Positions 3-10,631 of a stretch of DNA of 64,000 bases are shown piece by piece (the stretch's first letter is position 1; each line of letters begins with the position of its first letter). The stretch is from Armatimonadota bacterium (GTDB lineage: Bacteria > Armatimonadota > UBA5829 > DSUL01): positions 1,091,165-1,155,164 of the forward strand of contig JAXGLP010000001.1 of NCBI GenBank assembly GCA_040769165.1, given 5' to 3'. The translations under genes were made by a program, and so were the position numbers. The notes below the pieces were generated by a model, which made no database searches, was not told the DNA's origin, and saw only the letters and a program-made list of their open reading frames with translations.

Positions 3-3000
3 AGCCAGCAGTACATCAAACCGGGAGAGACCACGGCACAGCAGGTCACAATCAAGGACAAGGACGGGAACTCCAAGACCGGCTACTGGTATTACACGCG
101 CTGGGCGTGGACGCTCGATTCGGGCAAGCTGATGACGCCGGGGTCGGAGTATACCATCCAGGCGCAACTCAGGCCGCAGAAGGGCGGGGCCAGCCTTGGG
201 GCCACCATTCCCGTCAGCGCCACGACCTCGCCGTTTGCGAAGAACAGGGGGACCCAGCCAGCCCGGACATTCACCATCAACAACCCGCTCGCCATCTCCT
301 TCCCGGACAGGTATGACCCGAACACGTTTGTCAAACTCTCGGGGGTGGTCGGGCCCGGGTGGAAAGGGATCGCCGGGGAGGGTTTCGGACAGGATCGCCT
401 CACCCCGGGAGCGGAGTTCAACGGGATGGCGAGCGATGTCACGCTCCCTGTCCCTCCGGCGCGGCACGGCAGCAATACCATTCCGCTGAAAGTTGCACTG
501 GCCGACCGGAGCGTCCTGGGGCAGCACATTCGCACGAACCCGCAGCAGAACATCATCAAGACTCTCCGCGTTCAGCCGAGGGACCTCCTGTGGAACAGCA
601 GCGTCGTTCCGCTCAACCCCATGCCGTGGGAGAACGTTCCGCAGCAGAACACCATCAACGACAGCCTCGACTACCCCGATATTTCAAGAGGGAGTGTGGA
701 AGTCATCAAGCGGGGCGATGCGGACCCCGTGCGCACACACGCCCGTCTAATCCCGGCCACGCCGAGCGCGGGCGGGCTTCTTGTGAACCCCGATCCTGTC
801 AGTCTGGTTGTCGAGGTGCCGCGCTACCAGCCTCCGCACGATTACGGCCCCGCGCGAGTGAATGTCTGGATTGATTCCACTGAGTCGAATACGAGCAGGG
901 GCGTTCTCGATCTCGCGGACACCCGGACGACCGGGCGGCCTCTGACCGCCTCGGAGGTCTATCGCTACTTCTACATCGAGACGCGGGTGCCGACTGACGC
1001 GAACATGTACGCGGAGCAGGCGATCATTGATGTCGGCAAACGTCCGATGGGGTTCGGGATCGCGCCTCCGGGCGTGTTCATGCCCTATCCGCCCCCTCTG
1101 GCGGGGCTTATGCCCCCGGCAAACCCGGGAGATCCTCCCATCCCGAGTTCGGGCTTCTTCCGTCCTTTTGTGGTGCGCAACGACGGTAACATCAATCTGG
1201 TGAACCTGCGCCTGGACAACTCGGTCAACCTGGGAAGTGATCAGGTGATGGGCTCTGTCATATCGGGCACCAATGTCGTGTCGTCGCTCGACGCCCGCTT
1301 CGACGCGGCGCTGTCGGCGCCCGAGGTTCTTGTTCCGGGCGCGGGGCATGTGCTGTCGAAGCCGAGGGTGGGGGACCTGGGCCCCACAACCCTCCAGATT
1401 CCGGACCAGAAGCAGTACGAGTTCTACAAACTGGCAAACCCGAACATGCCGGCTCCGTTCCTGCCGCTGGTCTCCGTGCAGGTGCCGATTGGCACGCCGT
1501 CGGGAACGTACGCGGGGGCCGTGCCTGTCGTGGCGGCCGGAGTTCCGCCGCCGAGCGCGAACAACCCGACGCAGAATATGATTGCGGTGAAGGTGACCGC
1601 GCGCGAGGCACGGATCACGGGCGGCCTGACGGCGGGCTCCCTGGCCAATGTTGACTTCCCGCAGGTCGATGGAAGCAACAACCCACCTCCCGATTGGGGC
1701 GACGCGCAGCCGGCTCCTTACCGCATGTGGACAGGCTCAGGCGGAACGCCGGCAGCGGGGGTTCCGAGCGGGCCTCTGGGGCTGTTCTGGGCGAGCAACC
1801 GCGGAGACGCAAACGCCGCCGGGCCGGGTATGCCGTGGTACCTGTATCAGTCGCTGGTCAACGTGGACCAGACGGGCAGCTTCACGCTCACTCCTGTCAC
1901 GGTGTCGGGTGGCCCGGCATTCCAGTGGTGGCGGCCGACCGATCCCGCGTCTGCTCTTCCGGTTGCTTACGGGGCGGCGCTCTCCACGCTTTTCCCTGGT
2001 CAGAGCAATGTGGTTCCGGGCAGCGAGAAGTTCAGCAGCCCGAGCATCGGACAGGATCCGTCCAACGGGGCGACCTGGCTTGTCTTCACAGGGCAGGTGG
2101 ACAAAGACGTCAACGGCCAGATTCTGAGCGAGTACCGGATCATCTACGCGAAGGTGAGGCCGGATGGGAGTGTTGACCCGGCGACGGCGGGTGTGATCCC
2201 GAGCCAGAACTTCACGGTGCCGAAGCACTCGCCGCGCATCTTGCCCGTGGGCGGCGATAAGCTTTATGTCTTCTGGCACGCCGGGCTGGGCAACAAGTAC
2301 AAGCTCTACTACACGTACAATTCCGATAACGGGAACCCGGTCAGGTGGAGTGAGGACACTGAGCTTGTGATTCCGGCTTCTGTTACAGCGGCGGCCGAGC
2401 CTGTGCCTGTGCCGCGGATGATGCCGGTCTACGGGTCGGACGACCGGACGCCGCAGGCTCACATCGATGTCGTTTACAGCGGCATCTCGCGGCGCGGAGG
2501 GGCGGCGGATCTCTTTCTCAGCCGTTATGCCGTTGTCCACTCGGGCAATCGGGTGCGGCTAAACATACAGCCGCTCGCCCGCGTTCAGGATGAGCAGTAC
2601 GCCCCCCTGCCGCTGGTCGAGGGAGAGGACCTGCAGCGCGATACGCGATCTATCGGTCTCTACTATTCGCGGCATCTGGGGTGGGTGCGCCCGAAGAACC
2701 AGCAGGCGCCTCCTGATCCCGCCGCTGTTCGCCCATCGCTGCTGCCGCCCATCATTCGCGTGCTTCGCTGGGATGCCGCGCAGTCGGCGTTCACTGTCGA
2801 GGACGTGACGGATACCCGGCCGATAGTGGACGCTCAGTCAGGAATCGCTGTTTACGAAGACCCAGACTACGGGCGGATTGCGGTTGACTTGTCCGCGGGG
2901 ACGGTCAAGTTCGAGCGGCCGCTCGCGAATCTGGATCGAGTCGTTGCCGAGTACACGCCGCAGACCCTGCGTCTGACCAGCTTCGCGCCGGCGGAGACGG

Positions 3001-3599
3001 GACCGTTTGCGGTGCTCGACAAGTCGCAGCGTCTGGCAAACCGGACGTCGCGCGATCCGGCTGACCGCTACTGGGTGTTCTGGCGCGAGGGGCCGGGCAG
3101 CCAGCCGGGCAACACGATCTACTACAAGACCATGCGGGTAGGGCTGAAGCTGAAACGGGCAGTCGCAATAGACGGTTCGAGCGGCAGCCCGATGCTGAAG
3201 ATCAACATCGGCGGCGGCGGGGCATACAACGGATCGTGGGAGTTCGACCGTGTGAACAACCGGGTTCTCTTCCCCGAGTCTGTTGAGAACACCGACGTGT
3301 GGGTGGAATACACAGGTGTGGACGGTGCTGCCTATCGTGAGCCCGAGGGGCACACCGTGCCGCCTTACAAGGCGCTGACGTTGATTGACGAAATGCCCGC
3401 AACCGCGCTGCTGACGGATTCGGTGGTCAATGAAGGCCAGGTGGCGGCGTTTCCGGATCCGGACGGACTGCGTGCTCCCGGGGATCCGCTGTTCGTGCCT
3501 GGCAGGATGTGGGTCTTCTGGAGCAGTTCCAGAAGCGGCAACGCCGATCTGTATTATCAGACAATCAGCCCGAACTTCGAAGTGCGGACCGGCTGGTAG
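3..3599 (+). CDS. Large secreted/surface protein, 5'-truncated (>1190 aa), beta-rich with propeller-like repeats; possible PilY1-like pilus-associated protein
   Basis: The frame of ORF 132..3599 is open back to base 3 (SQQYIKPGETT...GKLM), so the gene starts outside the window. Recurrent (L/V)FW motifs (LFWASNR, VFWH, VFWRE, VFWSSSR). Lies directly upstream of pilM. Function is inferred from context only. Confidence 0.75.
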   Translation, partial: SQQYIKPGETTAQQVTIKDKDGNSKTGYWYYTRWAWTLDSGKLMTPGSEYTIQAQLRPQKGGASLGATIPVSATTSPFAKNRGTQPARTFTINNPLAISFPDRYDPNTFVKLSGVVGPGWKGIAGEGFGQDRLTPGAEFNGMASDVTLPVPPARHGSNTIPLKVALADRSVLGQHIRTNPQQNIIKTLRVQPRDLLWNSSVVPLNPMPWENVPQQNTINDSLDYPDISRGSVEVIKRGDADPVRTHARLIPATPSAGGLLVNPDPVSLVVEVPRYQPPHDYGPARVNVWIDSTESNTSRGVLDLADTRTTGRPLTASEVYRYFYIETRVPTDANMYAEQAIIDVGKRPMGFGIAPPGVFMPYPPPLAGLMPPANPGDPPIPSSGFFRPFVVRNDGNINLVNLRLDNSVNLGSDQVMGSVISGTNVVSSLDARFDAALSAPEVLVPGAGHVLSKPRVGDLGPTTLQIPDQKQYEFYKLANPNMPAPFLPLVSVQVPIGTPSGTYAGAVPVVAAGVPPPSANNPTQNMIAVKVTAREARITGGLTAGSLANVDFPQVDGSNNPPPDWGDAQPAPYRMWTGSGGTPAAGVPSGPLGLFWASNRGDANAAGPGMPWYLYQSLVNVDQTGSFTLTPVTVSGGPAFQWWRPTDPASALPVAYGAALSTLFPGQSNVVPGSEKFSSPSIGQDPSNGATWLVFTGQVDKDVNGQILSEYRIIYAKVRPDGSVDPATAGVIPSQNFTVPKHSPRILPVGGDKLYVFWHAGLGNKYKLYYTYNSDNGNPVRWSEDTELVIPASVTAAAEPVPVPRMMPVYGSDDRTPQAHIDVVYSGISRRGGAADLFLSRYAVVHSGNRVRLNIQPLARVQDEQYAPLPLVEGEDLQRDTRSIGLYYSRHLGWVRPKNQQAPPDPAAVRPSLLPPIIRVLRWDAAQSAFTVEDVTDTRPIVDAQSGIAVYEDPDYGRIAVDLSAGTVKFERPLANLDRVVAEYTPQTLRLTSFAPAETGPFAVLDKSQRLANRTSRDPADRYWVFWREGPGSQPGNTIYYKTMRVGLKLKRAVAIDGSSGSPMLKINIGGGGAYNGSWEFDRVNNRVLFPESVENTDVWVEYTGVDGAAYREPEGHTVPPYKALTLIDEMPATALLTDSVVNEGQVAAFPDPDGLRAPGDPLFVPGRMWVFWSSSRSGNADLYYQTISPNFEVRTGW

Positions 3600-3794: not shown

Positions 3795-5312
3795 TTGGCT
3801 AAGAAAAGGAAGGCCTTCGGGCCGGTAGTCGGCCTGGATATCGGGTCGCGGTGGATCAAGGCGGTGGAGGTTCGTCCGTCCCGTGATGGCGCTACTATCA
3901 CAGGAATTGGATATGAGCCCACACCGCAGGGCGCCGTTGTCGAGGATGCCATCCTTGACTCTGCCGCCATAGCTTCCGCGATCAAACGCCTCTTCAGCAA
4001 TAGCGGCATCAGCATTAAGAAAGTCGTGAGTTCCGTTTCGGGGCAGTCCTCGGTCGTTGTCAGAATTATCGATGTTCCGAAGATGACAGAGCAGGAACTG
4101 GCCGAGACGATGAAATGGGAAGTGGAACGGCATGTCCCATTCCCTGTAAGCCAGACCGTGATGGATTTCCAGATCGTCAACCGCGCCTCCGCGCCGCCGG
4201 ACGCTCAGACCATGGAGGTTCTGCTGGCCGTCTGCCAGGAGGAAGTCGTCAAGAAGCACATTGAGGCCCTCGGCGCGGCAAAACTGGCTCCGCAGGCGAT
4301 CGAAGTCGAGTCCGTTGCGCTTCCCCGGTCGCTGATTGCGGGGGATCCGGAGGCGGAGAGCCACACCACGGTGGCGATAGCGGAGATCGGCAACGAGAGC
4401 ACAAAGCTCTGCATCTACGAAAACAAGACGCTCGTCTTCCCGAGGAGCATACCCATTGCGGGCGGGAATCTTCTGCGCGCGCTCATTGATATGATGGGGA
4501 TGAGCGAAGAAGAAGCCGAAGTGGCGCTGCGCGAGCACGGCTCTGTTGACTTGAGTGTGCTGAGCGGCGTGGCTGAGCCGGCGCCTGATGCGGGTAGATT
4601 TGCGGACCAGGCTGAGGAGACGCAGCTCGGAGGGTTCAGCAGCCCCTTTGCAGCGCCGGAGCCTCCGCCGGCAGGGAGCCCCTTTGCCCCGCCCTCCGCG
4701 GCCCCTGAGCCTCCCGGTGGCCCTGAGCCCCCGGTTGTTCCCCCTCCCATAGGTTTTGACCTTGGGGACGAGTTGATTTCGGCTGCCCCCGGCGCCCCTC
4801 AGGAATCCGTGCCGGAGCCGCCTGAAGCGTACGTGCCAGAGCAGCCCGGCGCGGCCGTGTTCGACCTCGACGACGAGGACCGCCGGACGCAGGCTCCGGT
4901 GTTCGATCTGGACGAAGAGCCTGCGGCGCCGCAGGCCACGGAACCTGCTGAACCTTTTGCTGTTGAGTCGCCGGCGCAGCAGGACAGCGGTGGCTCTTCG
5001 GCCATCAGTTCGACGATTGCTCCCGTGCTGGCGGAACTCGCGGCCGAACTGAAGCGGTCGCTGGATTACTACACGGGCAGGTACCCCGATCCGGTTGATG
5101 CGCTGATTCTGTCCGGCGGCGTGTCGAAGCTGCCGGGCCTGGCGGGGTATATGGAAGCAATGCTGGGCTTGCCCGTAAGTGTGGGGGACCCTGTTTCTCA
5201 TCTGCCTATGCAGGCGAAACGCTATGGTCCGGAGTTTCTTGCCGACATCTCCCCGGTGTTTTCGGTATGCCTGGGCCTGGCGCTTCGCGACTATGCGGGA
5301 GGTAAGGGCTGA
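3795..5312 (+). CDS. pilM: Type IV pilus assembly protein PilM (actin/FtsA-like) with a large Pro/Ala/acidic insertion
   Basis: VGLDIGS..IKAVE N-terminus, WEVERHVPFP, EIGNEST, ELKRSLDYY, ILSGGVSKLPGL, C-terminal GLALR. TTG start. Confidence 0.92.
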   Translation: MAKKRKAFGPVVGLDIGSRWIKAVEVRPSRDGATITGIGYEPTPQGAVVEDAILDSAAIASAIKRLFSNSGISIKKVVSSVSGQSSVVVRIIDVPKMTEQELAETMKWEVERHVPFPVSQTVMDFQIVNRASAPPDAQTMEVLLAVCQEEVVKKHIEALGAAKLAPQAIEVESVALPRSLIAGDPEAESHTTVAIAEIGNESTKLCIYENKTLVFPRSIPIAGGNLLRALIDMMGMSEEEAEVALREHGSVDLSVLSGVAEPAPDAGRFADQAEETQLGGFSSPFAAPEPPPAGSPFAPPSAAPEPPGGPEPPVVPPPIGFDLGDELISAAPGAPQESVPEPPEAYVPEQPGAAVFDLDDEDRRTQAPVFDLDEEPAAPQATEPAEPFAVESPAQQDSGGSSAISSTIAPVLAELAAELKRSLDYYTGRYPDPVDALILSGGVSKLPGLAGYMEAMLGLPVSVGDPVSHLPMQAKRYGPEFLADISPVFSVCLGLALRDYAGGKG

Positions 5313-6043
5313 TGCTGTCCATAAACCTTATCCCTCGCTCTTACTTCGAGGCGCAGTTTGTAAGGCGGCTGATGGTGTTCTTTGGGGTCCTGCTTGGGCT
5401 GGTTCTGCTAGCCATGCTTGCCCTGACAATGATGTACGAGCAGAAGATCGCGCGGACAAACGAACAGCTCCAGCAGGTTGAGGTACGGGCGCAGCAGGTT
5501 GAGGCGCTGGAGAAGCAGGCGGCAGACCTTCGCGCGGAAGTCAAGCCCATCCAGGACAAGATCAAGTACATCCGGGACGTCATGACCTACAACCGCAAGA
5601 TGGTGGGAGTTCTGCAGGAACTGGCGCGTTACACCTACCGCAAGGTCAGCTACGAGTCCGTTACTCCGGGCGAAGGAGGAAGCACTCTGACAATCGTCGG
5701 TGTCGCGCCGAGCATCATGGACTCGGGCCGGTATCTTCTGGGCCTGTACAGGGCGACAAATCTGTTCTCGGGTCTTACGTTTTCGGGTGTTCCTGGATAC
5801 CGGTCGGGGGCTGGCGATAGCGGGCAGCAGGCCGGGGGGGGGCTGGCGGCCCTTCAGGGCGCGCTTTCACCTGTGCGCTTCACGGCTGTGTGTACATTGA
5901 GGGAGCCGCTTGTTGCTCCGACACCACCGGGCGGCGCGGCGCCCGCCGATGCCGGCGCGGCTGCCGGAGTGCCTTCAACGAGTGGCATGCCTCCGCCCGG
6001 AACTCCCGCGGCGCTGGGAGCTGTGCCGGAGCCGGGGCAGTAG
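5312..6043 (+). CDS. pilN: PilN-like type IV pilus assembly protein
   Basis: N-terminal INLIP motif (PilM-binding INLLP-like), one TM helix, coiled coil. TGATG coupling to pilM. Confidence 0.8.
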   Translation: MLSINLIPRSYFEAQFVRRLMVFFGVLLGLVLLAMLALTMMYEQKIARTNEQLQQVEVRAQQVEALEKQAADLRAEVKPIQDKIKYIRDVMTYNRKMVGVLQELARYTYRKVSYESVTPGEGGSTLTIVGVAPSIMDSGRYLLGLYRATNLFSGLTFSGVPGYRSGAGDSGQQAGGGLAALQGALSPVRFTAVCTLREPLVAPTPPGGAAPADAGAAAGVPSTSGMPPPGTPAALGAVPEPGQ

Positions 6044-6110: not shown

Positions 6111-6884
6111 TTGAGCAAGTTAACCAGATTACACGTTATTGTGATCGGCGTGGTGCTGAACCTCGTGGCCCTTGTCGGCGCCTACTTCTTCCTGGTGAAG
6201 CCGCGAATGGAGAAGTTCGCGGCGGCAGACGCCAAGTTGAAGGAGCGCACGGCTGTGGCGGACCGTCTGCCTGTGGCCGAGGCTGACAGGCAGAAGGCGG
6301 AGTTGGAGAACCTTCAGGCGCGCCAGGACTATCGCCGTTACGAGGACGCCAAGATGCCGGTCATATCCGTCGCAGACCGAACCCAGGCGATGATCGCGCT
6401 CTGGCGCGAGCAGGCCGAGGTGCTTGGCCCGATGATCGAGAACTGGCCGCGCAGGTATGGAGTGGAACTTCTCAACAATGTGAGCATTCCGCCGGCAACC
6501 ACGAATCCGAACACGCCGATTCCGTCCCCCTATGTGATAGATGTGGGCGCGATGAGTGTGCGGGGTGACTTCTATTCAATACTGAGAAGCATCGAGGGAT
6601 GGAACCAGTTCAACCGCCTCGTGCAGATCAGTCCGATGACGATTCAGGGCGTAAGCCCGTCGCTGACTGCGAACTACGGTCTGAGGGTCATCATCTTTCC
6701 CAGGGGTAAGATGGGACCCGAAGTTGCGATGGCGAAGGGCTCAACGGACGCGGCGGGGGCTGGAGGCGCGGGCGGGGGCATGGCTCCGCCGCCGATGCCG
6801 ATGGGCGCGCCGGACATGGGCGCTGGGCCGCCAGTCGGGGGACCTCCGGGAGAGGTGCCTGGCGGAGGCATGCCTGCGCCATGA
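6111..6884 (+). CDS. PilO-like type IV pilus assembly protein
   Basis: N-terminal TM, coiled coil, then SVRGDFYSILRSIEGWNQFNRLVQI resembling the PilO ferredoxin-like domain. Follows pilN. Confidence 0.7.
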   Translation: MSKLTRLHVIVIGVVLNLVALVGAYFFLVKPRMEKFAAADAKLKERTAVADRLPVAEADRQKAELENLQARQDYRRYEDAKMPVISVADRTQAMIALWREQAEVLGPMIENWPRRYGVELLNNVSIPPATTNPNTPIPSPYVIDVGAMSVRGDFYSILRSIEGWNQFNRLVQISPMTIQGVSPSLTANYGLRVIIFPRGKMGPEVAMAKGSTDAAGAGGAGGGMAPPPMPMGAPDMGAGPPVGGPPGEVPGGGMPAP

Positions 6885-6951: not shown

Positions 6952-7734
6952 TTGAGCGAGTGGCTGAACGATAAGAAGAACCAGCCGAAGATCATCGGCG
7001 CATTCGTCGCCGTAATGTTGCTGGTCGCCGGCGTTTTCGTGTTCCCCAGGCTATTCGGCGGGGGAGGGAGCCCCGACGCGGCGGCTCCAGTGGCCCCGGC
7101 GCCGGGTGTCCCCGGCGGAGCGCCGACTCCGGACGCGACGGGCGGGCAGCCCATGCCTCCAGATGCCGCCGCGCCTGCACCCGCACCAGATGCCGGGGGC
7201 GCACCGGCGGCCGCGGCGGCCCCGGCCGAGAAGCAGCCGCCCCTGGAGGAGTTCAAGGCGGACCCGTTCCAGCCATATGTTGGGCCGAAGCCGCCTCGAA
7301 CAAAGCCCACTTTCATGGCCAAGCTCCCGAAACCGGACATCCGCCGGGTTGCCCCGGTAGTGCTGAAGCCCGAAGAGCAGGAGGCGTATATCCAGCCGCC
7401 ACAGGGAAGAATGGCGGGGATATTGAAGAATGATCGCGTGTTTGCGATCATAGAGAGTACAGATGCTACGCCGAAGACTGCGATAGTCAAGCCCGGAGAC
7501 CAGTACCCGTTCAACTCCGACTTTGCCGTTGACCGGATACTCCCGGACCGTGTCGTCCTGCGGACTACGAAGACAAAGGAACCGCGGTTCTTCGATCTGC
7601 CGAAGTCGGCGGGGCGCGTTACGGCGCAGCCTGGAGCGGCAACACGCACGCCGCGCGGGCCGTCGCCCGCAATCCCGGATCCGGGACGGGGCATGCCGGG
7701 ACCGCCGGGAGGTATACCGCCGCCTGCGCCCTGA
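6952..7734 (+). CDS. PilP/GspC-like membrane-anchored pilus assembly protein
   Basis: TM anchor, Pro/Ala linker, DPF motif (KADPFQP), then RMAGIL...AIIE...IVKPGD, typical of the PilP/GspC HR beta domain. Occupies the pilP position. Confidence 0.6.
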   Translation: MSEWLNDKKNQPKIIGAFVAVMLLVAGVFVFPRLFGGGGSPDAAAPVAPAPGVPGGAPTPDATGGQPMPPDAAAPAPAPDAGGAPAAAAAPAEKQPPLEEFKADPFQPYVGPKPPRTKPTFMAKLPKPDIRRVAPVVLKPEEQEAYIQPPQGRMAGILKNDRVFAIIESTDATPKTAIVKPGDQYPFNSDFAVDRILPDRVVLRTTKTKEPRFFDLPKSAGRVTAQPGAATRTPRGPSPAIPDPGRGMPGPPGGIPPPAP

Positions 7735-7908
7735 GTTGGCGAGGCGCCCGGCATTCGGAACTGCCGGGAATGTGGCGGAGTCAGATTGGTAGAGGCTGCT
7801 GACGTGGTTGTTGCGGCCTCGCGCGATTGAGGTAAGAATCCGGTAGGTGAGCGGGTGGGGCTGTTTACTCCGGACGACGGGATCAGACATTACAGATTGA
7901 CCAGATAG

Positions 7909-8709
7909 ATGGTGAAAGCAGGCGCAAAAGTGAAAAAGCAAGGTTCGCTGACAGTTATTTTCGCTCTGGCCGTTGCGGTTCTTGCGCTGTCCGGCCCGGT
8001 TTCGGGTCAGACTGATGCCAATGCGCAGGATTCCCGCAACTCGCCAGTGAGTCTTGAACTGACCAACACCCCGGTGCGGGCGGCAATAGACGCGCTGTTC
8101 AAGTTCGTGCCGTTCAATCACGCGATCGGCAGCGACGTTGAGGGAGTCATTCCCAGCCTGTCGCTCGACAAAGTGCCGTTTGAGCAGGCGCTGCGCACGG
8201 TCTGCCGCATAAACGTGCCGGTGCTTACGTTCACGCGGTCGGAGGGCAACCTCTACGAGATCAAAGTGAAGCCGGCTCCCACAACCGATGGCGGAATGGG
8301 TGTCACGGGCGGCGTTGGCGCTGTTCCGGAAACGCCGGGAGGGGAGGGTGTCGTCGGAACGACCACCGATGAGGAACGCCCTGTCGAACTGCGCAAGATT
8401 ACGCTCAACTATGCGCGCCCCGGCATTATCAGCCAGTTGTTTGGCAATGTGACGGTCGTTCAGGATAACGATGACATGTATGGTGGCGGCGGCGGTTATG
8501 GTGGCGGCTATGGTGGCGGCTACGGCGGAAGCAGTTACGGGGGCGGTTACGGCGGCTACGGCGGCAGCAGCATGGGTGGCGGCTATGGCGGCTACGGTGG
8601 AAGCAGCCGCTATGGTGGCAGCAGCAGTTGGGGCGGCGGCTACGGCGGCAGCAGCCGATACGGCGGCAGCAGCGGCAGTTGGGGAGGGAGCCGCTACGGC
8701 GGTTATTGA
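7909..8709 (+). CDS. Secreted secretin-N-terminal (STN-like) domain protein with a Gly/Tyr/Ser-rich C-terminal tail
   Basis: Signal peptide; VSLELTNTPVRAAIDALF...LSLDKVPFEQALRTV resembles the secretin N0/STN domain; about 75-aa GYGG tail; no secretin barrel domain. Confidence 0.75.
   Translation: MVKAGAKVKKQGSLTVIFALAVAVLALSGPVSGQTDANAQDSRNSPVSLELTNTPVRAAIDALFKFVPFNHAIGSDVEGVIPSLSLDKVPFEQALRTVCRINVPVLTFTRSEGNLYEIKVKPAPTTDGGMGVTGGVGAVPETPGGEGVVGTTTDEERPVELRKITLNYARPGIISQLFGNVTVVQDNDDMYGGGGGYGGGYGGGYGGSSYGGGYGGYGGSSMGGGYGGYGGSSRYGGSSSWGGGYGGSSRYGGSSGSWGGSRYGGY
8477..8706 (+). repeat. Low-complexity coding repeat (GGY/GGYGGSS units)
   Basis: Imperfect tandem ggc/ggt/tac/tat/agc codons encoding YGGGGGYGGGYGGGYGGSSYGGGYGGYGGSSMGGGYGGYGGSSRYGGSSSWGGGYGGSSRYGGSSGSWGGSRYGGY. 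Confidence 0.9.
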
Positions 8710-8912
8710 GACAGCCGGGCCAGAGCGATTATTTTGGGCTGAAGTGCGCTGTATTGGAAGGAAGTTGGCGCCTGTGCGGCCAACAATGCTTGAGCCCGTA
8801 GTCTGGCTGTAGTACGAAGAGTGCTTTGGGGGCCAGTTGGCGGGCCGGAGACGGTATGTTGGCTCATCGTGAACACCCGCGACGCGCGGGTGGTGCCGGT
8901 GAGCAGGAGGAT

Positions 8913-10631
8913 ATGAGTTTGCCTCGTGCATCCAAGATAACTTTGTGCGGAGTCGCCGCGGTTCTGCTTGCGCTCTGCTGGCTCACCGGAGGACTGGTTC
9001 CAGCCGCGTTCTCGGCAGAAGCCGCTGCTCCGGCCGCAGGGGACCTGCTGTCCCTGGATGTGACCGACACGCCGTTGAAGACTGTCGTGCAGTTGCTGAT
9101 GCGGGACAGCGGCATTAACATCATCCTTGCCTCGAACGACAAGATGAATGTTCCGATCACCGCGACACTGAAAAACCTGCCCCTGGAGACGATTCTGAAA
9201 TCGGTTCTGGCATCAGCGGGACTGAATTACGCGCGCACAGAAGATGGCACGTATCTTATCGGGGCAGAGGTGCAACCGGCCGCACCGCCGGACAAGCCCG
9301 AGGTTGCCATGCCCGTTGAGCCTGCCGCTGCGGTTGTTGCCCCTGTGGTGCAGCCCGAGCCACGCAGGCGCTCGAATGTTGAGATGATCAGGCTCCAGAA
9401 CATCAGCCCCAAGGACGCTATGTCCGCCATGGGGCTGATCCGCGCCGAGGATGCATTCAGCCCGAATCCGCGCCCCACGGTTTGGCGGGGCCCGGCCGTT
9501 GCCTCTGTTCCCGTGGATCAGCGCGGCCCACGCGCGGACCTCTACGATTTCTCGCAGCCTGTTGTGACAAACACGAACCCGTACGGGTCAACCGTGAACA
9601 TCAATGTGCCGCCGGCGCCTGCTGCGCCGACAACCGATGCGCCGAATGCTGCGATCGCGAGCCGGGCCGGCGAAGTAGGTGCGACGGCCAGTCAGTACCG
9701 TCCGACTACCACGCGGCCGACAACCACCACAACCACTCGCCCGGGCACCACAGGGACTACCGGCACGACAAGCAGCACGGAAGATAGCCTTCTACCGGAT
9801 GGGGTTGACAGAATCTTCGCTTATCCCGAGCAGAATGCCCTTCTGGTGATGGGAGACGATGAAGGTGTTGCCAAGCTCAAAGACCTTATCACGCAGATTG
9901 ACCTTCCGCCGAGGCAGGTGATCATCAAGGCTGAGTTCGTCCAGGTGAGAACAGAGATCACGAAAAGGCTGGGCCTCGACTGGATGCTCACGAGGCCGAA
10001 CTACACTGTTCAGACGAATTTCGGCCCCGCGGGGAACGTCCTTGCGTATGTCCAGACGGGCAACGTGACGGCGAATCTTCGGGCGGAGTTGACGGAGAAC
10101 GGCGGCAAGGTCGTGAATGCGCCGATCATCTCTACGCTCAACAACCGCCAGGCGATCATCAGCATCACGAACAGCACTCCGTACTATACGCCGGTGATCC
10201 AGACAACGACGACGGGCAACATCACGCAGTACACGCCCGGGTCACTGGACTATCAGAGTGCGCTCGATGTAATGCCGCAGATTAACGGCGACAACTCGAT
10301 TACTCTGACGCTCAGGCCGGAGATCACCGACCAGTCGGGTCTGGTCAAGAGCCCGGATGGCACTCAGGAGCTGCCTGCGACGGTTACTCAGTATCTGTCA
10401 ACGGCGCGCCGGGTGGCTAACGGCGAGACAATCGTGGTCGGCGGGTTCATCAAGAAGAATGACTCGAACAGCGGCACAAAGGTGCCGATTTTGGGTGACC
10501 TTCCCATCATTGGCAAGCTGTTCCGGTCAACGTCCGACGTCAAGCAGGATGTCGAGACGTTGATCTTCATCACGCCGACCGTTGTTCCGGACAAGAGTTC
10601 GACCGAGGCGATAGGAGTCATCTCGCCCTAG
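8913..10631 (+). CDS. Secretin (PilQ/GspD family)
   Basis: GGAGG RBS before ATG 8913; signal peptide; STN domain; IDLPPRQVIIKAEFV; NGETIVVGG; KVPILGDLPIIGKLFRS; TLIFITPTVV. Confidence 0.93.
   Translation: MSLPRASKITLCGVAAVLLALCWLTGGLVPAAFSAEAAAPAAGDLLSLDVTDTPLKTVVQLLMRDSGINIILASNDKMNVPITATLKNLPLETILKSVLASAGLNYARTEDGTYLIGAEVQPAAPPDKPEVAMPVEPAAAVVAPVVQPEPRRRSNVEMIRLQNISPKDAMSAMGLIRAEDAFSPNPRPTVWRGPAVASVPVDQRGPRADLYDFSQPVVTNTNPYGSTVNINVPPAPAAPTTDAPNAAIASRAGEVGATASQYRPTTTRPTTTTTTRPGTTGTTGTTSSTEDSLLPDGVDRIFAYPEQNALLVMGDDEGVAKLKDLITQIDLPPRQVIIKAEFVQVRTEITKRLGLDWMLTRPNYTVQTNFGPAGNVLAYVQTGNVTANLRAELTENGGKVVNAPIISTLNNRQAIISITNSTPYYTPVIQTTTTGNITQYTPGSLDYQSALDVMPQINGDNSITLTLRPEITDQSGLVKSPDGTQELPATVTQYLSTARRVANGETIVVGGFIKKNDSNSGTKVPILGDLPIIGKLFRSTSDVKQDVETLIFITPTVVPDKSSTEAIGVISP

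Follow-up and report, generated by a model that had tools for sequence, protein, structure and literature searches.

Results

A secretin-adjacent gene encodes a free N0-like domain with a glycine-rich tail

The gene studied here lies in a 64,000-nucleotide stretch of DNA (the window, to whose positions all coordinates refer) from an Armatimonadota bacterium, the source genome comprising 4.01 Mb in 8 contigs with a GC content of 64%. It occupies 7909..8709 (+), with an ATG start and a stop codon at 8707-8709 that are given by the list of open reading frames (ORFs) and by homologues of the same layout, and it encodes a protein of 266 amino acids that combines a secretin N0-like domain with a tail of glycine, tyrosine and serine. 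Judged from sequence comparisons, the gene appears to be an ancient partial duplicate of the adjacent secretin gene, and its product may serve as an accessory subunit of a type IVa-like pilus machine.

The N-terminus (about residues 1-33; 7909..8007, +) reads as a Sec/SPase I signal without a lipobox cysteine, with a Lys-rich n-region, the hydrophobic core LTVIFALAVAVLAL and the cleavage site VSG|QT, and AlphaFold2 (AF2) places a helix at residues 11-27 within this putative signal peptide. An equivalent N-terminus is present in 27/27 aligned homologues, none of which has a lipobox-type Cys at the cleavage site. Residues 44-120 (8038..8268, +) were assigned to a secretin N0/STN-like domain from AF2, Foldseek and profile comparisons with PilQ and HofQ chains. 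AF2 modelled this part with a predicted local distance difference test (pLDDT) score above 90 and with secondary structure elements in the order b-a-b-b-a-b-b. The top Foldseek row was the N0 domain of Neisseria PilQ (4ar0; E 1.4e-5, root-mean-square deviation (rmsd) 1.8 A over 76 columns). The next rows were N0 domains as well, from LspD and GspD (4jtm), and further N0/STN folds, those of BfpG, DotD, FecA, PupR and phage baseplate proteins, ranked lower. Similarly, a profile built from 27 family members matched, among PDB sequences, PilQ from V. cholerae (6w6m; 1.3e-13), P. aeruginosa (5e-13), N. meningitidis (5.8e-12) and M. xanthus (1.6e-9) as well as HofQ (2y3m; 1.6e-8). NCBIfam gave N-terminal matches to HofQ/PilQ with E ~1e-6, under the full-length cut-offs, the best one being HofQ, a DNA-uptake porin. 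The Pfam family STN (PF07660) reached 13.5 bits (E 0.064) with the window protein, at a gathering cut-off of 28.4, and exceeded this cut-off in 6/6 of the orphan homologues scanned (30.2-44 bits; see below for orphans).

The domain is followed by a variable Gly/Thr/Pro/Glu-rich linker (residues 121-158; 8269..8382, +), with AF2 pLDDT below 50 and poorly conserved columns, and by what the profile alignment identifies as a remnant of the secretin N1 domain, comprising its first strand and helix (residues 159-185; 8383..8463, +; ELRKITLNYARPGIISQLFG...). The profile alignments with PilQ from V. cholerae and P. aeruginosa continue beyond N0 and linker and take in the strand and helix with which N1 opens (KIxLNfa..a.eIa in the family, IkiNfAkAsdIA in PilQ), and K163 within the remnant is invariant in the 27 sequences; AF2 modelled a helix at residues 171-177 with pLDDT ~52. 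For the window protein, Pfam gave no Secretin or Secretin_N family match at E<=1, and the chain stops after the tail at residue 266. An HR-type beta-sandwich domain is absent from the protein, the upstream gene at 6952-7734 having one, and with an N0 fold, no TPR family in Pfam and no Cys at the signal cleavage site the protein does not qualify as a pilotin.

The tail is low in complexity and conserved in composition

The remaining 81 residues (186-266; 8464..8706, +), delimited by composition, AF2 and DNA repeats, end in SRYGGY and contain 51% Gly, 20% aromatic residues, 19% Ser, three Arg, no Lys, no Glu and three Asp that are confined to the start of the tail. AF2 found no secondary structure in this part (pLDDT <45), and the underlying DNA consists of imperfect repeats with periods of 9/12/27/36. 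All stop-to-stop ORFs of at least 60 amino acids in the six frames of the 4.01-Mb genome were scanned for a 40-residue window with at least 45% Gly and at least 12% aromatic residues, and a single ORF, the one described here, was found. As the tail is unique in the genome, it is not a general tag of the organism, and the idea of a 'Gly/Tyr tail tag' carried by many of its proteins was rejected. Readings of the tail as a sorting signal (lipoprotein, PEP-CTERM, LPXTG-type) were also rejected, since the protein has neither a lipobox nor a C-terminal hydrophobic helix. When only the tail was submitted to a cluster look-up, the highest score was 0.79, no better than chance.

The tails of the 27 aligned homologues, all of which conserve this kind of composition, comprise 63-114 residues with 32-70% Gly, 12-26% aromatic residues, 1-7 Arg, no Lys and no Pro, and their acidic residues are limited to the first tail positions. 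The dominant aromatic residue (Tyr, Phe or Trp) differs by lineage, giving GYGG, GFGG, GWGG or GSSW; the tail changes in sequence but keeps its composition. In 47/58 tails the gaps between aromatic residues were more even than in at least 95% of shuffled versions, with 3-5 residues as the commonest gaps, and only 2 adjacent aromatic pairs were observed where 190.7 were expected. The C-terminal residue is aromatic in 57/71 members, 61/71 have an Arg among the last five residues, and R-x(0-3)-[WFY] stands at the very end in 51/71. The tail has what is expected of a FUS-type domain, namely repeated [G/S]Y[G/S], evenly spaced aromatics and predicted disorder, and its profile matches the low-complexity domain of hnRNPA1 (E 3.3e-4), a match that reflects composition and not homology. 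A preliminary description of the locus, made from the DNA letters, had called the tail prion-like; the term is apt for its [G/S]Y[G/S] pattern and its regularly spaced aromatics, but the tail is not rich in Q/N, as N amounts to 4.5% and Q to 0.8% across the 27 tails. The same description had noted the signal peptide, the STN/N0-like domain, the start of a secretin N-domain (ELRKITLNYARP) and the Gly/Tyr/Ser tail directly before a full secretin, and each of these features was recovered in the present analysis.

The gene is an extra member of a pilM-N-O-P-Q-like operon

Directly downstream lies the gene for a PilQ-like secretin (8826-10631, +; Pfam Secretin 4.3e-38, Secretin_N and STN; TIGR02515 2.8e-51), whose start is probably the ATG at 8913 and which is the single match to PF00263 in the whole source genome. 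The upstream neighbour (6952-7734, +) encodes a putative PilP/GspC-like protein of 260 amino acids, assigned by AF2 and Foldseek. This protein has a transmembrane helix, a linker rich in Pro and Ala and the conserved motif DPFxP, and its C-terminal domain (residues 152-218) is a six-stranded beta domain of the HR type. Its top nine Foldseek rows were all PilP or GspC/PulC HR domains, with weak but uniform values (E 0.05-0.2, TMt ~0.6), and its profile matched PDB sequences at best with E 0.037, to the GspC HR domain (3oss_C). The PilP-like identity rests on these fold rows, individually weak but uniform, and we use the name in this sense. Further upstream follow a pilO-like gene (6111-6884, +) and a pilN-like gene (5312-6043, +), both for bitopic coiled-coil proteins that gave no family match of their own in Pfam and NCBIfam scans and owe their names to their position and to a gene order that related loci share, and pilM (3795-5312, +; PilM_2 3.6e-52, TIGR01175 2.3e-61).

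All genes of the series pilM-N-O-PilP-like-[tailed N0 gene]-secretin share one orientation, and the pilM-N-O-P-Q order reads as that of a type IVa-like operon. Since the operon already holds a PilP equivalent, the tailed N0 ORF is an extra gene between pilP and pilQ. In the source genome the pairing is one to one: there is one secretin and one family member (E<=1e-15), and they are neighbours of each other. When the surroundings of the gene were scanned for promoters and terminators, nothing usable emerged: no terminator was convincing, and of two promoter-like sites the first lies antisense within the gene and the second shortly after its stop codon.

Two further observations concern this region. 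PilM, with 505 amino acids, has the halves of its actin-like fold (PilM_2 at 13-247; FtsA match up to 472) split by a Pro/Glu/Ala-rich stretch, and upstream of pilM adjoins an ORF (3-3599, +) of at least 1198 amino acids that extends past the start of the window and has no Pfam family at E<=1.

The stretch was found letter for letter in metagenome DNA contigs from sludge, bioreactors and digesters, which may include the source of the DNA, and also in six RNA-library runs. Contigs from 4/4 metatranscriptome runs, belonging to four studies, covered parts of 7695-8491 with zero differing letters; about 8492-8577, most of the repeat tail, was uncovered in all four, which is uninformative for contigs and a repeat. 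Presence in RNA libraries is only a hint of transcription, as such libraries can contain DNA.

The N-terminal region probably derives from a secretin

In a pairwise BLASTP comparison the ORF and its own secretin gave no significant match, the best segment lying in a different register. In contrast, phmmer with the secretin as query on a small ORF set aligned secretin residues 45-127 with residues 19-98 of the ORF (E 3.7e-4) and gave values down to 4.6e-13 for the homologues of the ORF. The parallel between the N-domains of the two proteins that the preliminary description had drawn is thus in the right register by phmmer, and is not significant by pairwise BLASTP. The secretin is laid out as N0 (~73-150), linker, a strand and helix (~184-215), a Pro/Thr-rich stretch and then the remaining N1/N3. 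This stretch (residues ~216-345) is long, low in complexity, includes TTTRPTTTTTTRPGTTGTTGTT and splits the N1/N3 domain, and the Pfam Secretin_N match covers residues 186-364 of the secretin though the profile has 69 positions. The ORF mirrors the secretin exactly up to the point of the Pro/Thr insertion, which fits a partial duplication of the 5' end of pilQ.

In a maximum-likelihood tree of 48 N-terminal regions, 31 accessory proteins separated from 17 secretin N-termini at 100/100 support; the tree was midpoint-rooted only and several of its long branches were flagged. Branching within the accessory clade tracks taxonomic families, parallel to the secretin side. As the accessory clade parted from the secretin before these families arose, a recent decaying duplicate is ruled out, and the word 'paralogue', used for this protein in the preliminary description, fits in the sense of an ancient partial duplicate. 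Orphan copies cluster with operon copies of their own family and therefore arose several times.

The family is widespread in Armatimonadota

A word-index search yielded six relatives with 47-99% identity, all with a tail. Using the profile of 27 sequences at E<=1e-15, a family match was obtained in 141/201 evenly sampled Armatimonadota genomes, in 125/170 high-quality genomes and in 89/117 genera. A first profile at E<=1e-3 gave 307/401 genomes, which is an upper bound because this threshold admits weak N0-only matches, such as two more in the source genome. Secretins were found in 400/401 Armatimonadota genomes, with 1 to 8 or more matches per genome. Among 30 loci fetched from the phylum search, the secretin gene lies directly downstream in 15; the other 15 have no secretin within the 1.5-kb flank, several of them reaching a contig end and being uninformative there. 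The full order pilM-N-O-P-[gene]-Q was seen in loci L002-L004 and L043-L045. The search across genomes for tailed N0 genes next to secretins that the preliminary description had proposed thus returned a recurrent arrangement, and neither of the outcomes that it had named as fatal, absence from relatives or a tail of unconserved composition, was encountered.

An exhaustive profile search with the N-domain only gave 9243 representatives at E<=1e-3, of which 1873 reached <=1e-10 and 151 reached <=1e-30. The best 149 representatives comprise 45 with a single N0 and a Gly/aromatic tail, 13 with a single N0 and an absent or short tail (several of them truncated), 84 in which 2-6 N0-like domains stand in tandem without such a tail, and 7 with several N0 domains and a tail. 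On these sequences, free proteins with several N0 domains seem to make up a family alongside the tailed form with one domain. Members of the wider family are annotated at source as 'hypothetical protein' only.

Some copies are placed unusually. Locus L046 (G314:C13, ~7125-9552, -) contains three tandem family paralogues, two of which are highly divergent, with long tree branches. In many draft genomes the family gene ends at a contig edge within the repeat tail (G028:C68:1-618, G132:C261:1-642, G068:C83:4-561, G079:C14:1-606); the repeats appear to break short-read assemblies, and copy counts and synteny in draft genomes are therefore underestimated. A metagenome variant with 99% identity (263 amino acids) differs chiefly by small indels inside the Gly/Tyr repeats, so that tail length is polymorphic between close strains.

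Two other proteins of the source genome have weak N0-like matches. On contig C2, at ~272.5 kb (L035:1432-2148, +), a second stand-alone protein with a signal peptide (E 2.9e-4) has a Tyr/Pro/Arg-rich end (…YPATYIPRRYLPAGW) and is Trp-terminated as well, and on contig C3, at ~212.3 kb (L036:1330-2259, +), an ORF of 309 amino acids (E 4.3e-4) overlaps the end of an upstream ORF of 302 amino acids.

A cluster look-up had given the nearest clusters the label 'Viruses/Uroviricota', with a phylum for only 6-15 members; this label was not reproduced and was given no weight. Three scans of IMG/VR viral contigs detected no relative, and tblastn gave no match in 50,697 GenBank phage records.

Complex prediction with the PilP-like protein

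When residues 95-225 of the PilP-like protein were modelled together with the N-domain of the ORF, an ipSAE of 0.40 was obtained in three runs, with contact agreement between runs of at least 91% and partner pLDDT of at least 59; the best of 3 controls was 0.00. In a benchmark, the mark was reached by 116/157 solved complexes and by 2/215 mismatched pairs, and scores of 0.60 or under comprised only 18/157 solved complexes along with both passing mismatches, counts that are rough because custom alignments were used. The result was classed as weak support, and the models suggest that the N0 module may contact the HR domain of the PilP-like protein.

Discussion

Secretin N0 domains bind the HR domain of PilP/GspC. 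We read the N0-like domain of the tailed protein as a docking module because of this contact and because stand-alone N0-like partners of secretins are known. The 5' part of the secretin gene, which encodes N0 and linker plus the strand and helix that open N1, would have been duplicated anciently and retained as a separate gene. Its product would be exported by Sec to the periplasm and dock there, most likely on the PilP-like ring, on the N-terminal ring of the secretin or on both, which would give one copy per subunit of the machine. The tail of ~80 residues would be intrinsically disordered, its aromatic 'stickers' set at even intervals by Gly/Ser 'spacers', and a ring that carries many such tails could surround the channel's periplasmic mouth with an elastic and cohesive mesh. 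Taken as a whole, a functional periplasmic accessory subunit of a type IVa-like pilus machine, docked by its N0 and carrying a self-associating mesh-forming tail, is a reading whose chances of being right or wrong we judge to be evenly balanced; domain identities, conservation, synteny and tail grammar are shown by the sequences, whereas the docking and every function given to the tail are what we infer. A more specific version, in which a ring of at least 12 tails at the secretin mouth forms an FG-nucleoporin-like gel that acts as a selective gasket around the moving pilus or DNA and would retain periplasmic contents during gate opening, we hold to be unlikely.

Several observations weigh against an N0-docked subunit with a mesh-forming tail. 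The ipSAE obtained lies in a score range in which a pass is wrong more often than right unless the contact was likely a priori, and since the complex of the GspC HR domain with the GspD N0 domain has been solved (3OSS), the pass may stem from likeness to that structure instead of from binding. According to Pfam the secretin retains an N0 of its own, which makes the need for a second one puzzling, and the two might compete for PilP. The N1 remnant was modelled at low confidence, and the even spacing of aromatic residues is partly a trivial outcome of tandem-repeat origin. At E<=1e-15 no family member was found in the sampled genomes of f8 (0/18), f12 (0/4), f19 (0/6), f21 (0/5), f22 (0/5) and f30 (0/2), and secretins are present in 27/27 genomes of family f8; as there are secretin-bearing lineages without a family member, the tailed N0 protein is not a universal requirement of secretins. 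Also, 6/6 orphan loci extended by ~8 kb per side have no pil or secretin gene within ~6 kb and have unrelated neighbours (glycosidases, kinases, UvrB and others), which means that the protein is not strictly bound to the operon. Three of the orphan-bearing genomes also hold an operon copy in the full pilM-N-O-P-[gene]-Q order.

Other roles have to be considered for the same protein. Wall anchoring of pilus machines is provided in Proteobacteria by AMIN domains of PilQ or by LysM proteins (TsaP, FimV), and in Pfam scans the adjacent secretin has STN, Secretin_N and Secretin only and the operon is without any peptidoglycan-binding family. The tailed protein might supply such a tether in trans, its N0 sitting on the machine and its Gly/Tyr/Trp/Arg tail binding to or threading through peptidoglycan. 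A tail rich in aromatic residues and Arg, free of Lys and acidic only at its start is compatible with stacking on sugars, and plant glycine-rich wall proteins are similar in composition; however, the tail has no known peptidoglycan-binding motif, the lack of AMIN and LysM is a negative Pfam result only, and we consider the tether improbable. A low probability, in our estimate somewhat lower, attaches to an outer-membrane-directed assembly factor, in which the R-x-aromatic end would be a beta-signal or PDZ ligand and N0 would chaperone or nucleate oligomerisation of the secretin, a pilotin-like role without lipid anchor at the outer-membrane assembly machinery or at a periplasmic PDZ protein. 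The frequent aromatic last residue (57/71) and R-x(0-3)-[WFY] end (51/71) would suit such a factor, the operon, the only part of the genome searched for one, shows neither a TPR nor a lipoprotein pilotin, and BfpG is described in PMC12531336 as promoting multimerisation of BfpB. Against it, the tail has no alternating hydrophobic pattern as in membrane beta strands and was modelled as disordered, and there is no lipobox.

The tail might hold incoming DNA at the secretin, for eukaryotic RGG and [G/S]Y[G/S] domains are nucleic-acid binders, the tail is net positive with Arg as its only charged residue over most of its length, and it resembles the hnRNPA1 low-complexity domain (E 3.3e-4, compositional), HofQ being the best NCBIfam match of the N-domain. 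But each tail has only 1-7 Arg and the HofQ match reflects N0 homology, not function, which leaves DNA binding a very slight chance. Hardly better are the prospects of a general STN/N0 adaptor not tied to pili that would serve other secretins (type II-like) or the TonB-dependent or anti-sigma signalling modules in which the STN fold also occurs: orphans in unrelated neighbourhoods, the 1 to 8 or more secretin matches per Armatimonadota genome, the 84 tandem multi-N0 proteins among the best 149 representatives and the FecA and PupR STN folds among the Foldseek rows would speak for it, whereas the best profile matches are PilQ of type IVa pili and HofQ, the start of N1 included, and the only copy of the source genome adjoins the only secretin, in a pil operon. 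Finally, a protein that resembles a secretin cut inside N1 and then continued by simple repeats could be the functionless remnant of a decaying secretin duplicate. Intact frames of the same layout in 141/201 genomes, an old clade that tracks taxonomic families and the conservation of signal peptide, invariant residues and tail grammar leave this view next to no chance.

Few bacterial envelope complexes have been studied as well as secretin machines, yet their structures come nearly all from Proteobacteria, Thermus and Myxococcus. The N0-docked subunit with a mesh-forming tail would be a conserved extra subunit of such a machine over much of one phylum. Free N0 modules have so far been known from type IVb pili (BfpG/TcpQ); one would then have evolved independently also from PilQ in a type IVa-like system, and a sticker-and-spacer domain on a periplasmic machine is, as far as the literature searched shows, not described. 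Should the tail be a gel, a wall tether or a seal, it would offer a testable handle on the anchoring and leak-tightness of large, gated outer-membrane channels during filament movement, and the gel, if true, would make this the first envelope channel of a bacterium for which a condensate-type permeability barrier or seal is described. The C-terminal R-x-aromatic motif is simple and easily mutated. The full-text literature searched, which did not cover subscription journals and supplements, has no description of the family or of a Gly/Tyr-tailed secretin partner, in line with the preliminary suggestion of an extra, possibly undescribed pilus or secretion subunit; the gene is in addition conserved. 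The stacking on the secretin N-ring, the plug or mesh and the DNA binding that the preliminary description also put forward would be further, conjectural steps.

Comparison with known systems

With the N-terminal region of PilQ/HofQ the tailed protein shares homology by profile over N0, linker and the start of N1, the same fold and the proximity to a secretin gene, whereas it lacks the remaining N1, the secretin beta-barrel and the S-domain and ends in a Gly/aromatic tail instead. From the N-termini of the Armatimonadota secretins themselves the tailed proteins differ in forming a separate clade. In the known pairs of a PilP/GspC HR domain with a secretin N0 (3OSS, 6HCG, 3JC8, all among the fold rows) the N0 lies within the secretin chain; here the HR-type domain is encoded in the upstream gene, and a free second N0 stands beside the secretin's own.

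Sticker-and-spacer low-complexity domains are best known from eukaryotic condensates. The tail has [G/S]Y[G/S], GFGG and GWGG repeats in common with FUS/hnRNPA1 domains, FG-nucleoporins and plant glycine-rich wall proteins, and it resembles them also in its even aromatics, few charges other than Arg and predicted disorder. Unlike those domains, it belongs to a bacterial protein that is predicted to be Sec-exported and periplasmic, and it is not Q/N-rich.

An N0-like fold as a separate ring subunit is likewise found in DotD and in the C-terminal domain of VirB7 (Foldseek 7mud, 6x62, 3ady), which are lipoproteins of type IV secretion without a tail and match in fold only, in rows of high rmsd. 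According to PMC12531336, BfpG consists of a signal peptide and an N0-like domain, binds the type IVb secretin BfpB in a 17:17 ratio and promotes its multimerisation, and TcpQ, CofC and LngC are BfpG homologues. These proteins and the tailed protein have in common a signal peptide, a single N0-like domain, no barrel and a secretin-linked gene. The BfpG chain 9u5s_R was matched by Foldseek with E 1.6e-2 and rmsd 2.4 A over 85 columns at 8% identity, and BfpG was not among the sequence matches of the family profile in PDB at E<=1. In contrast to the tailed protein, BfpG as described in PMC12531336 cannot be related to secretin N0 by sequence and lacks both an N1 remnant and a low-complexity tail, and it belongs to a type IVb system in which it binds the LG domain of a lipoprotein secretin, whereas the tailed protein is encoded in a type IVa-like operon. 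Partners of the BfpG/TcpQ type are thus the closest known kind, from which the tailed protein is set apart by a conserved Gly/aromatic tail with an R-x-aromatic end, by its apparent derivation from PilQ itself and by its place in a type IVa-like operon.

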